A stretch of DNA of 64,000 nucleotides from a virus. Lineage: Duplodnaviria; Caudoviricetes. Position numbers and translations under genes: made by a program. The notes under the pieces are model-generated. The model was not told the DNA's origin. It searched no databases and saw nothing but the letters and a program-made list of their open reading frames with translations. The stretch lies in the IMG/VR virus record IMGVR_UViG_3300005686_000008, one strand, 5' to 3'. Positions 3 through 64,000 of this stretch are shown one piece after another. How positions within the stretch are numbered: the stretch's first letter is position 1; every line of letters begins with the position of its first letter.

Positions 3-704
3 GACGGGTGGACTAGCGCTGCTTATGCTGTAAACGTTATGAGATCAAGATGGCCCGAGATGGAAAGATATATGAAGAATTTTGGATTTGATAACACAAA
101 TCAATTATATGAAAAGACATTTGGGGTTAAACTGAAAGAGGCTAGCATGACTTGGTATAAAAGGTGTCAAAGACTAACTCCTCAGCAGATGGGGATGTAT
201 CAAAACTTCAAAAGCCCAACTGGTGTTCAGTTGAAAGGTAGCGGAATGTCTGCTGTTTTTCAGATTCCCGGCATCAATCAAACAATCAATGGCGCTCAAC
301 TTATGAATCAAGTTGTTGCCAGAATAAAAGGCGTTCTTAATCAAAACAACGTTCACACAATAGATACAAGTCCTGTTTCTAGAGCCGATGCTATAGGGTT
401 GGCAGTAAGTTCTGAACCAGGAACTGTCCATGTCGATATTGCAAAAATATTCAATATAGTCAAGAATCAGACGTTGCCTGCTGTTACCCAACTTGACGGG
501 ACAACGGTTGACAAAGACGTTCAAAATGACATTATAGGTAAAATTTCATCATACATTACGAATCAGCTAGCAAATACAGCAGCTCACGAATCTCAGCATA
601 ATATAGACTATTTTCAGAGTTTTCCAAAGGGCAAGTTTGAGTCTCCTGAAGGAGGGGCAGAGGCTTTTGGTAATCAAATAGCAAATCAGTATTTTAGACC
701 ATGA
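3..704 (+). CDS. 5'-truncated putative virion protein with C-terminal zincin-like (HExxH) domain
   Basis: Frame is open from the window edge (DGWTSAAYAVNVMRSRWPE...). Internal KLKEAS-MTWYKRCQ tag at 147, then AAHESQH with downstream Glu (ESPEGGAE). Confidence 0.6.
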   Translation, partial: DGWTSAAYAVNVMRSRWPEMERYMKNFGFDNTNQLYEKTFGVKLKEASMTWYKRCQRLTPQQMGMYQNFKSPTGVQLKGSGMSAVFQIPGINQTINGAQLMNQVVARIKGVLNQNNVHTIDTSPVSRADAIGLAVSSEPGTVHVDIAKIFNIVKNQTLPAVTQLDGTTVDKDVQNDIIGKISSYITNQLANTAAHESQHNIDYFQSFPKGKFESPEGGAEAFGNQIANQYFRP

Positions 705-62292: not shown

Positions 62293-64000
62293 ATGTCAGA
62301 TAAACCAAGTGAAAAGCCGATCAAGATGCAACTTCCTAACAAGTTGGCTTCTGCAAAAATCATGTCAGCAAAGGGTATTGTGCAGAAAGACGGCAATGCT
62401 TCTCATGGTAATTTTGCAACATCGAATGTTGTTAGCATTCCCATAACGAAAGCCGCTCAGTGGGCAGGCTCTGGCGCTAATGTAACAATGACGCAGCCAA
62501 TGTTCTTCTCTCCGTTGCATACTCCTCAAAACTGGCAGATAGCAAGCAAGAGAAAGGAAGTTTATCAATGGGCAAGATTCTATTATGAAAATGAGCCTAA
62601 AGTTGCCGCTGGTATAGATTTCTATTCGCAGTTCCCGATTAACGGAATAAAACTTGAATGTAAGAAAAAGAGCGTTCTTAGGTTCTTCGAGCATCTTGTT
62701 GAAAAGATAGAACTCATGTATTGGCTTAGAATGATAAGCCATCAGAGGTTCTTGCTTGGCGATGTTTTCGTTATGACGGAAATCGCATGTCCTCATTGCA
62801 AGGGTTCTGGAATTGATAAAGAAACTAAAGAGGCATGCAATCACGCAGACGGAACGATAGGAAAGATTACCGTACTCAATCCAGACTGGATTGAGGTTAT
62901 GAAAACTCCTATATCGCAAGACCCTCAAATCGTTCTTTTGCCAGACGAAGAACTTCAAAGAATTGTACAGACAAAGCAACCAAAGTTCTTATATGATCAG
63001 ATTCCTGATACAATCAAGATTCAGATAATGGCGAAGAAGCCAATCTTGCTTTCTAATAGGGTTACAAGTCATATTAAGCACGGCGGAAGTCCGTATGGAA
63101 CTTATGGAGAGTCTTTGCTTCGTCGTTTGTTTACAAGCTTGGCCTATAAGACTAAGTTGATGACAGCAAACTGGATTGTGGCAGAAAGACTTATTCTTCC
63201 AGTAAGAGTCGTTAAGGTTGGTTCAGATGAACGTCCTGCTGATGATGACGCAATTGCAGATGTTTCTGCTCAGTTGTCTGCTGTTGCTAACGATCCAAAT
63301 CTAACCATAGTTACTCATAATAACTTTGATTATGAATGGTATGGCGCTAGCGGCAAGATTCATAATATCAATCAAGAACTTGAATATGTTGGCAAGGAAA
63401 TTCTTGACGGTCTTATGTTGAATCAGACGCTTCTCAACGGAGAGATGGCTGGTTATAACTCTGCCCAAGTTGGCGTTGAAGTTATGATTCGTCGTTTAGA
63501 GTCTTGGAGAAATGAGCTTGCTCAATGGATTGAAAAGAACGTCTTTTTGCCTGTTGCCAAGATGCAAGGATTTATAGATGAAGAAGAGAGTAAAGAGTTT
63601 GGAGAAACTGTTTACTTGTATCCAAAGATTAAGTGGGATGACCTAAGACTTAGAGATAATACAAATCAGTTGCAAATGTTCTTGCAGATGCAGCAGAGCG
63701 GACTTATTTCTGCTCAAACTTTGCTTGAAGAATTTGATCTTGATTATGATCTTGAAGTTGAACGAATAAGAAACGAGCAAGTTCAAGCTATGCAAAATGG
63801 TCAGCTTATGGGTGGCGGCGGCGGTGGAGGAATGGGCGGCGGTATGGGAGGTATGGCAGGCGGAGGTGGCGCTCCTGGCGGGATGGATATGGGCATGGGC
63901 GGTGGAGCTCCTGGTATGGATGGTGGTATGGGCGGCGCTCCTGGTATGGATGGTGGCATGGGCGGAGGAATGGGAGGTATGGGCGGAGGCATGGGAGGGG
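62293..64000 (+). CDS. Portal protein (3'-truncated; absent from the ORF track)
   Basis: Translated by hand, open to the window end: WARFYYENEP.V..GIDFYSQFP, LLGDVF, LNPDWIEV, YGESLLRR, PKIKWDDL, GLISAQTLLEEF. GGAG RBS; downstream of terL. Confidence 0.8.
   Translation, partial: MSDKPSEKPIKMQLPNKLASAKIMSAKGIVQKDGNASHGNFATSNVVSIPITKAAQWAGSGANVTMTQPMFFSPLHTPQNWQIASKRKEVYQWARFYYENEPKVAAGIDFYSQFPINGIKLECKKKSVLRFFEHLVEKIELMYWLRMISHQRFLLGDVFVMTEIACPHCKGSGIDKETKEACNHADGTIGKITVLNPDWIEVMKTPISQDPQIVLLPDEELQRIVQTKQPKFLYDQIPDTIKIQIMAKKPILLSNRVTSHIKHGGSPYGTYGESLLRRLFTSLAYKTKLMTANWIVAERLILPVRVVKVGSDERPADDDAIADVSAQLSAVANDPNLTIVTHNNFDYEWYGASGKIHNINQELEYVGKEILDGLMLNQTLLNGEMAGYNSAQVGVEVMIRRLESWRNELAQWIEKNVFLPVAKMQGFIDEEESKEFGETVYLYPKIKWDDLRLRDNTNQLQMFLQMQQSGLISAQTLLEEFDLDYDLEVERIRNEQVQAMQNGQLMGGGGGGGMGGGMGGMAGGGGAPGGMDMGMGGGAPGMDGGMGGAPGMDGGMGGGMGGMGGGMGG
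63805..64000 (+). repeat. Gly/Met-rich low-complexity tail of the portal
   Basis: GGMGG and GAPGMD repeats. Confidence 0.85.

Follow-up and report, generated by a model that had tools for sequence, protein, structure and literature searches.

A short peptide, in which an aromatic residue or leucine is followed by any residue, lysine, any residue and alanine, recurs in about twenty unrelated proteins of a tailed phage (Caudoviricetes; IMG/VR record IMGVR_UViG_3300005686_000008), at their termini and where domains join. We give about an even chance to a combined model in which this peptide, hereafter the tag, is a label that means "load into the capsid, then cut". The stretch of 64,000 nucleotides analysed here (the window) corresponds to bases 165201-229200, minus strand, of the 370,652-bp virus record, which is ~73% complete by estimate; positions below are window coordinates, including those that fall beyond its ends. 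Just past the window end, the major capsid protein (MCP; 73673-74569) shares 50-53% identity with Bacillus phage G gp27, and its family numbers >1000 metagenomic homologues. The source phage is a megaphage related to Bacillus phage G.

The 15 tags listed in the original prediction all proved to be in frame, in long open reading frames (ORFs) and correctly placed. We followed them in orthologues on three IMG/VR contigs (G001, G002 and L020; 37-75% protein identity). Relatives were gathered via the portal and the SNF2 protein; a locus search with the 832-amino-acid (aa) GNAT protein found one relative only, and megablast of one window gene against phage records gave no match. On the plus strand, KLKEAS-MTWYKRCQ (129-170) lies at aa 539-552 of a 729-aa protein that starts outside the window, where it precedes an HESQH module. 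The 832-aa protein, which has a C-terminal GNAT domain, begins SGWFKEAQ (722-745) and carries a second, internal tag, KRKVKA-NGWYSVAG (2807-2848), immediately before that domain; its orthologues begin MNWYYGQI, MNWYYDQI or MSWYVFAQ, and the internal position reads RRASGWYDLCKLAS in G001. An ~1003-aa protein is tagged at both ends, with MGWFSTAKLLVKFAG at the N-terminus (3443-3487; MSWYRIIRSMIKVAG, MSWYSIIRSMIKVAG and MNWYVAARPLIKVAG in orthologues) and LGWYRKSSIIY at the stop codon (6419-6451; orthologues end KNASKGWYRKAATTY and KQASSSWYRKLGVFG). Likewise, the SNF2-family helicase (1043 aa) starts MSSSYFDITKIAQ (6479-6517; MNNYFDITKIAQ in orthologues) and terminates in KQASSWYDKASIYG (9566-9607), the orthologues terminating in RQASTWYDRTILAGSV and RQAFGTWYRRIIG. 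Two minus-strand genes carry N-terminal tags: a 202-aa protein without a family match starts MKWYERAI (18150-18173; MKWYEKAI and MRWYDRAI in orthologues), and a 253-aa phage-lysozyme-domain protein starts MTNRWYTNLVEQDLRKEAI (20520-20576), of the form MTNRWYTNL..RKEAI. For the G001 orthologue of the latter, the ORF call does not show a tagged start; it opens with LKLITF..., 34 residues ahead of the part that aligns. Further along the plus strand, MAFNLKKSQ (48990-49016) marks the likely true start of an ORF called from 48915, MSKKLPFNLSKQAR (50089-50130) opens a 159-aa protein whose orthologue on contig L013 starts MKLPFNLSKQARR, and SGWYLRLKNEDLAS (53146-53187), of the form SGWYLRLK.., closes a 132-aa protein. 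The tagged cluster also extends upstream of the window, with MSTWYELSKKA, MAWYKIAQ, MRWFELAKYGQ, MWYTLAS, MNWYKKAHQ and MRWFTKLS; a protein at -11508 holds two YFD-type tag copies together with six [KR].A[QSG] sites (0.9 expected).

The N-terminal pattern M-x(0-3)-W-[YF] was present in 12 of 398 called proteins, compared with 2.8 ± 1.7 in shuffles (maximum 9 in 300), and nine of these 12 starts fell among 32 genes between -12 and +21 kb, a 33-kb cluster (hypergeometric P = 8e-9). The longer pattern YF[DN][LI][ST]K.[AS]Q occurred four times in unrelated contexts, against an expectation of ~0.002 by a residue-frequency estimate. The codons of the tag copies differ synonymously, which places the selection on the peptide rather than on the DNA. 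Furthermore, BLAST detects no kinship among the carriers beyond two shared domains, and in the orthologues the tags are kept at the same ends while the remainder of the protein drifts.

The original prediction had distinguished two tag forms, W[YF] and [YF][ND]L. Both are present; as two motifs, however, they did not hold up. When sequences were aligned on the alanine, the W of W-[YF]-K-x-A fell at the Leu of [ND]-L-x-K-x-A (position P5), so that WYKIA|Q, WFKEA|Q and WYDKA|S line up with LSKVA|Q, LKKEA|Q and ITKIA|Q. Because W and Leu share one alignment position, the two forms are a single motif. Another K-x-A-S usually precedes the internal and C-terminal tags (KQA-SSWY, KNA-SKGWY, KKA-TSYNL, KEA-SMTWY), and the aromatic piece could thus be excised from either side.

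Comparison with relatives revealed four fusion or fission events, each of which retains a tag exactly at the junction. The HESQH module, which sits behind the internal KLKEAS-MTWYKRCQ here, is a gene of its own in L020, starting MNWYKLSNG. The G002 orthologue of the 832-aa protein has no GNAT domain and terminates at the tag, in TRASGWYARINKPQDFLREG. In an upstream 530-aa protein, the module behind VTYFELEKIAD forms its own gene in both G001 (MSWYDLAKFAD) and G002, the G002 start being without such a tag. A UvrD-like helicase (1190 aa; -5067 to -1495, L001:1496-5068 minus strand) has its tag internally (aa 1050), and in three relatives it ends in C-terminal ..GWY[VI]KAK... Directly behind the tag of this helicase lies a Top1-type Zn ribbon, and the protein also holds an intein-like insertion (Intein_splicing, aa 454-729).

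We then asked where the K-x-A core is concentrated. Sites of the form [KR].A[QSG] had been described as dense at 51-62 kb, and the count bears this out, with 22 observed and 8.2 expected between 51 and 62.3 kb (P = 5e-5). Across the whole head module (48.9-64.6 kb), 25 sites were observed and 9.0 expected (P = 8e-6). The effector cluster showed a weak excess (18 observed, 10.1 expected), and the metabolic, early and remaining structural regions were at expectation; enrichment in head proteins is thus accompanied by shuffle-level frequency in metabolic ones, and the motif frequency that the original prediction had named as refuting did not come about. In scans of the called proteins the terminal tag was absent from RNR, dUTPase and PDF, in agreement with the original prediction, and from the other metabolic genes at 10-32 kb. 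Rich head-module proteins are encoded on the plus strand between 51210 and 60693, with starts at 51210 (a 2H-SAK phosphoesterase with KIAS and KMAS), 57141 (four sites), 58485 (three) and 59923 (three). The 2H-SAK phosphoesterase (51210-51830; E = 1e-16) and a DUF192 domain protein (56091-57125; E = 2e-26) are unusual company for head genes.

The original prediction had suggested that a prohead protease be sought beyond the window, and we found one as the N-terminal domain of a 1991-aa protein at 66921-72896 (L002:7105-13080, minus strand). Residues 53-190 match the PHROG "head maturation protease" phrog_18299 (E = 2.9e-11), and the domain (L002:12301-13080, minus strand) is 45.6% identical to phage G gp19. 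Peptidase_S78_2 was seen below threshold in six of nine orthologues (E = 4e-4, 20.7 bits; cut-off 24), and the motifs N-H-Q-N-D (H102), H116 and S-M-G (S153) are invariant. A profile of the protease alignment found nothing relevant among Protein Data Bank sequences, and an AlphaFold2 model of the domain (mean predicted local distance difference test, pLDDT, 48.8) was too poor for fold comparison. By these matches and motifs, the domain is the phage's own prohead protease, probably a serine protease of the HK97 type (S78/XkdF-like), fused to a scaffold of ~1700 aa. In one relative, a Hint/intein-type insertion lies directly behind the catalytic S-M-G (L014:13331-14110).

The 1991-aa protein contains 18 [KR].A[QSG] sites (5.3 expected, P = 1e-5), and its nine orthologues contain 14-22 each (3.7-5.6 expected, P = 4e-4 to 2.5e-9). 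Over the protease-scaffold family the ordered pattern totalled 192 occurrences, compared with 18-55 for permuted patterns; composition therefore does not explain the K-x-A excess. Leu is the commonest residue two positions ahead of the Lys. At seven of the 18 sites (KVAS34, KTAG293, KTAS1251, KLAS1322, KYAQ1361, RIAG1886 and RWAS704) the K and A stay unchanged throughout the eight aligned orthologues, five of the seven being preserved as full sites in every one, and KEAQ964 is nearly invariant; flank identity at the conserved sites is just 50-60%. In both the present phage and phage G, K-[VI]-A-S sites flank the protease fold. The two downstream sites in the present phage (aa 274 and 293) fall at the point where the separate 300-aa protease gene of phage G ends. 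The portals of the two phages also agree, with sites near aa 17-18, at aa 53-55 and ~25-35 residues before the C-terminus: KLAS at aa 17 (62341), KAAQ at aa 53 (62449) and KKAQ at aa 732 here, and aa 18, 55 and 625 in the 648-aa phage G portal, which has an extra internal site at 278. From this restricted, directional enrichment, the conservation of sites, the flanking of the protease fold in two phages and the matching portal positions, K-x-A followed by S, Q or G is likely to be the cleavage motif of this protease lineage.

Close to the C-terminus of the scaffold, ~20 residues before the end, all ten orthologues carry [LM]-F-x-L-[DNS]-[KR]-(x)3-5-A-[QSD] (last 30 residues; 66921-72896 here). 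Scaffolds usually bind the coat protein through their C-terminal region, and this tag-like end may hint at what the tags imitate.

A different protease was also considered. Capsid and scaffold proteins of Staphylococcus phage 80alpha have an N-terminal extension like that of ribosomal protein L27, which is cut by the host cysteine protease Prp, and the L27 and 80alpha leaders read ..L-[ND]-L-Q-[FH]-F-A|S. The spacing of these leaders is the same as that of [YF]-[ND]-L-x-K-x-A-[SQ], and the phage G host is a Firmicute, so the tags could be mimics of the L27 extension that are removed by Prp. We regard this as very improbable, since the Phe-Phe directly ahead of the cut is absent from all tags and these phages, unlike those of the 80alpha type, encode their own prohead protease.

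Terminal tags and head machinery meet in the pre-portal head protein (60693-61883, +; 396 aa), which contains three tag islands: ASSYFDLSKVAQ (60945-60980), TSYNLKKEAQ (61401-61430) and, at its stop codon, KPYNWKEASSVKKK (61839-61880), of the PYNWKEAS..KKK form. An 11-mer of the SNF2 N-terminus MSSSYFDITKIAQ nearly matches island 1 (SSYFD[IL][ST]K[IV]AQ). All three islands recur in 13 IMG/VR orthologues, whose portals are 57-90% identical to the present one. The linkers around the islands are indel-rich and of low complexity; by contrast with this variation, N, L, K and A of island 2 and N-W of island 3 are invariant in a 12-sequence alignment. In a poor AlphaFold2 model (mean pLDDT 51.6), island 1 lies in a low-confidence stretch between helical regions. 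A complex prediction for the MCP (44-row alignment) and pre-portal residues 66-112, which contain ASSYFDLSKVAQ, scored 0.00 and weighs neither way. The N-terminal form of the tag is likewise carried by head-module proteins, at 48990, 50089 and 64593 here and on gp17, gp20 and gp38 in phage G.

We also scanned the whole genome of phage G (146,813 residues of proteome) and found that [KR]RL.KK[ASG] occurs 12 times, always at the extreme N-terminus (12/12; MKRLIKKAS, MKRLFKKAL, MKRLTKKAN, MRRLIKKSN). The Arg, Leu and Ser codons vary among these tags. A broader pattern was found in 27 proteins (3.3 ± 1.7 in shuffles), and two phage G proteins are tagged at both ends. The phage G tag reads L-x-K-x-A/S, in register with the motif of the present phage, and its copies are dispersed across 450 kb. 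The head module of phage G (gp1-21) holds 30 K.A[QSGA] sites (9.5 expected), and the more distant Tunturiibacter phage Tunturi_5 has the same kind of excess in the two proteins on either side of its protease (14 vs 3.7 and 9 vs 2.3 expected). Individual carriers were harder to relate: tblastn of the SNF2 protein against phages did not find a phage G homologue, and BLAST and hidden Markov model searches for homology between the MWYTLAS..LYHGTS protein and the MRRLIKKS..FFHGTS proteins of phage G, which would be one enzyme family in two tag dialects, were negative. An hhalign comparison of the latter pair gave 69% probability (E = 4e-5) over 49 columns, which is only suggestive and is not relied on here. 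A search of the published literature found no description of MKRLIKK, MWYK, YFDLSK or FNLKK in a phage context.

We propose that in phage-G-like megaphages a short linear peptide would combine two overlapping parts. The first, a hydrophobic residue (L or W)-x-K-x-A followed by S, Q or G, would be the recognition site of the phage's own prohead protease, with the cut presumably placed after the Ala; the second, the upstream aromatics W-[YF] or [YF]-[ND]-L, would dock the carrier onto a component of the assembling prohead core. From the N-terminus, the C-terminus or the interdomain linkers of unrelated proteins, the tag would recruit SNF2 and UvrD-like helicases, GNATs, the HExxH module, lysozyme and small orphan proteins as cargo that co-assembles into the prohead. 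The protease would then trim the tag off or separate fused modules, and the enzymes would remain in the capsid and be delivered together with the DNA. Loading in the manner of the T4 capsid-targeting sequence (CTS) is, we infer, the most economical reading of the terminal tags. Capsid loading is favoured by the near-identical tag on a SNF2 helicase and a head protein, by the N-terminal tag form on head-module proteins, by the fact that every tag could be removed by K-x-A cleavage, and by cargo types that resemble P1 DarB and polyvalent-protein domains (PMC12810830; 2H-SAK). The original prediction had spoken of a portable KxA code for packaging; its portability, selection at the peptide level and link to the head machinery are borne out by BLAST, codons and K-x-A enrichment, and the loading step is what we would infer from them.

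More tentatively, the tags may constitute an evolvable cargo address code of phage-G-like megaphages, phage G included: 6-10 residues at either terminus or bracketed in linkers, read by the head machinery, removed by the scaffold-fused protease and written in lineage dialects. The dialects themselves are M-K-R-L-I-K-K-A/S in phage G and M-x-W-Y-K-x-A or [YF]-N-L-K-K-x-A in the present phage. Were the code true, a few added codons would make any enzyme gene into injected cargo, which would explain the rapid turnover, fusion and fission in the effector cluster.

Several findings weigh against capsid loading or qualify the motif itself. The motif was defined only after the data were seen. Genome-wide enrichment of terminal dipeptides is dominated by Lys-rich ones, with W[YF] not standing out; C-terminal W[YF] is not enriched genome-wide (10 observed, 6.1 expected), so the C-terminal copies rest on orthologue conservation; and non-seed matches to a position-specific scoring matrix built from 23 instances equalled the shuffle background, yielding no further members. 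The instances at 20520-20576, 53146-53187 and 3443-3487 are weak. No [KR].A[QSG] site occurs in the MCP or in the head proteins of 631 and 209 aa, the aromatic pair is rare at the scaffold's own sites, where mostly aliphatic residues stand upstream, and tags at C-termini are without a T4 precedent. The effector genes share a promoter-like motif, tGTCGATAa, with metabolic genes and not with the MCP and head genes. Finally, the published phage G particle proteome includes the tagged gp346 and also more than half of the replication proteins (PMC12484599), and the listing of gp346 therefore does not discriminate.

Some of these points (patterns picked in hindsight, Lys-rich termini throughout the genome, a scoring matrix that finds nothing new and the flat C-terminal count) would equally suit the view that the apparent tags are an artefact of chance or composition, produced by K-rich N-termini and post-hoc patterns. 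We consider this barely credible, given the clustering (P = 8e-9), tag positions conserved in four relatives with diverged flanks, codons that vary between copies, the 12/12 N-terminal placement in phage G and the permuted-pattern control (192 vs 18-55). Clustering, conservation, codons and permutation rule out a chance origin for the core tag set; single weak instances may be due to chance.

The promoter-like motifs fall into two classes, with no clean late class. The first, [GA][GA]CTAAACTT[TC], has ~90 copies on the window's plus strand between -138 kb and -14.0 kb, mostly directly upstream of small ORFs; behind the motif there is often c.gcgcaaa and then, 19-28 nt downstream, an ATG. It resembles a promoter or leader for a single temporal class of genes in an early-looking region. 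Copies all but cease at -14.0 kb, the point at which the tagged effector cluster sets in, a boundary that we count in favour of the loading model. The second, tGTCGATAa, precedes effector and metabolic genes, as well as some in the structural region, at a distance of 13-85 nt (3344, 10690, 15843 minus strand, 16809 minus strand, 18322 and 20629; beyond the window, -13855, -11562, -5582, 75126, 75743, 89543, 98931 and others); it was not seen upstream of the MCP gene or the head genes at 58485 and 72934.

The promoter-like motif that effector and metabolic genes share fits an alternative in which K-x-A-[SQG] is the protease site and the terminal W[YF]/KRL tags are a separate docking motif for another hub, such as a chaperone, a replication or compartment factor or a degradation adaptor, so that the enzymes act unpackaged inside the infected cell. 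The scaffold's own sites, being mostly without the aromatic pair, point the same way, and they suggest that docking and cutting may be separate functions with different readers. The strictly N-terminal phage G tag (12/12) would suit a reader of free N-termini. Degrons and hub-binding motifs are typically terminal, at either end, just as the tags are. We hold this alternative to be unlikely, if far from negligible: SNF2 helicase and pre-portal head protein share a near-identical SSYFD[IL][ST]K[IV]AQ, head-module proteins of both phages bear the N-terminal form as well (48990, 50089 and 64593; gp17, gp20 and gp38), and the K-x-A core lies in register inside the tags. In addition, ClpP (Pfam PF00574) was not found in the 370 kb of this ~73%-complete record, and a phage-ClpXP degron reading gained no support from it.

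The two or three GNAT domains inside the tagged cluster, together with Lys being the most constant residue of the tag, raise the further idea that the tag is a leader for a phage-encoded modifying enzyme, in the manner of ribosomally synthesized and post-translationally modified peptides (for example, a cluster GNAT acting on the conserved Lys), with the K-x-A enrichment then being structural. This seems improbable to us: co-occurrence with the tags from lineage to lineage was not shown for any enzyme, the phage G copies are spread across 450 kb, and a directional, position-conserved K-x-A-[SQG] that flanks the protease fold in two phages fits autoprocessing better.

Loading followed by cutting has its closest parallel in T4. 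The CTS MKTYQEFIAE of the internal proteins IPI-III and Alt is removed by the prohead protease gp21 (Mullaney and Black 1996 via PMC10052503; PMC9026906). In both systems a leader of ~7-10 residues is common to otherwise unrelated proteins (by BLAST here, two shared domains excepted) and ends in a head-protease motif, a candidate one here, and the proposed role is loading into the prohead core and then trimming. The tags end in K-x-A-[SQG], which is 3-5-fold enriched in the protease-scaffold protein and is the predicted specificity. In contrast with T4, the sequence is another one, with Ala probably at P1 rather than Glu; the protease matches S78_2 (HK97/XkdF-like) and phrog_18299 rather than the T4 type, and neither the tag nor the protease shows homology to the T4 CTS or gp21; tags are also C-terminal and, bracketed by two sites, within linkers; and there are ~20 carriers, including large helicases, with lineage dialects (W[YF]/[YF]NL vs KRLIKK), known here from sequence alone. 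The tag system is thus predicted to be T4-like in its working and is, by these differences, not a T4 member by descent.

Giant phages of the phiKZ/SPN3US type have propeptides that the prohead protease cuts at A-X-E (PMC10052503, PMC5694885). Like the processing proposed here, theirs involves many head and ejection proteins cut at one short motif, multiple propeptide sites and a self-cutting protease; unlike the tags, the propeptides are mostly long (111-254 residues) with no single shared portable peptide, and motif and protease lineage differ. In the Dar system of P1, the DarB helicase-methylase, DarA, Hdf, Ulx and DdrA/B travel inside the head and leave it together with the DNA at ejection (PMC12810830, PMC9024508). 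Large nucleic-acid enzymes would likewise be capsid anti-defence cargo here, and P1 DarA is trimmed by the head protease Pro; however, P1 loads through an ordered hierarchy of protein-protein contacts (DarA and Hdf first) and has no short shared peptide. The cargo-loading peptides of encapsulins resemble the tags in being short, at either terminus and on unrelated cargo of an HK97-fold shell system, but they have no sequence similarity to them, and the tags overlap a protease motif. For phages and conjugative elements, polyvalent ("Swiss Army Knife") proteins were reportedly described by Iyer, Burroughs, Anand, de Souza and Aravind in 2017, with 2H-SAK as a Pfam family. They share with the present carriers the SNF2, GNAT, zincin-like peptidase, lysozyme and 2H phosphoesterase domains and the shuffling by fusion and fission, whereas here most modules stand as genes of their own, and each of these bears a short tag. 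A MuF domain, frequent in that class, did not turn up in Pfam scans of the tested proteins.

In the head region, the pre-portal gene is followed by a Zn-ribbon ORF (61880-62278), the portal gene (62293-64596, +; Portal_Mu, phrog_16240), the 147-aa gene from 64593 that carries an N-terminal tag form, the 631-aa gene, the protease-scaffold gene, the 209-aa gene and the MCP gene, which places the protease between portal and MCP. In two relatives (L007:8347-9987 and L013:8309-9964) the pre-portal and Zn-ribbon parts are one in-frame protein (546 and 551 aa, ending in HLSNVEHSADHLGL). This fits the idea that both ORFs are joined here (61857-62278) by a -1 shift at A_AAA_AAG, the sequence with which ORF 60693 closes. 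The MCP (L002:5432-6328, minus strand) has no delta domain. At its N-terminus, a nearly invariant I-A-Q-A stands directly before a conserved ALETDEGR, the phage G protein reading L-I-S-K-A-L at that place; as a lead only, I-A-Q-A may be the end of a short propeptide of 16-18 residues.

Overall, our analyses confirm the tags and partly support the idea that they realize the T4 capsid-targeting principle in a different protease lineage, for which we found no published description. If the tags do load capsids, they would extend that principle to another protease lineage and to C-terminal and internal positions, and would provide a very short, portable means of bringing foreign proteins into a very large capsid. 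Phage G, with its own version of the tag, makes the idea testable in culture. Irrespective of packaging, K-x-A-[SQG] is a concrete specificity prediction for the protease family. For the large, mostly uncultured clade of huge phages to which this one belongs (with >1000 homologues in the MCP family), tags that load capsids would allow the injected arsenal to be listed from sequence only.

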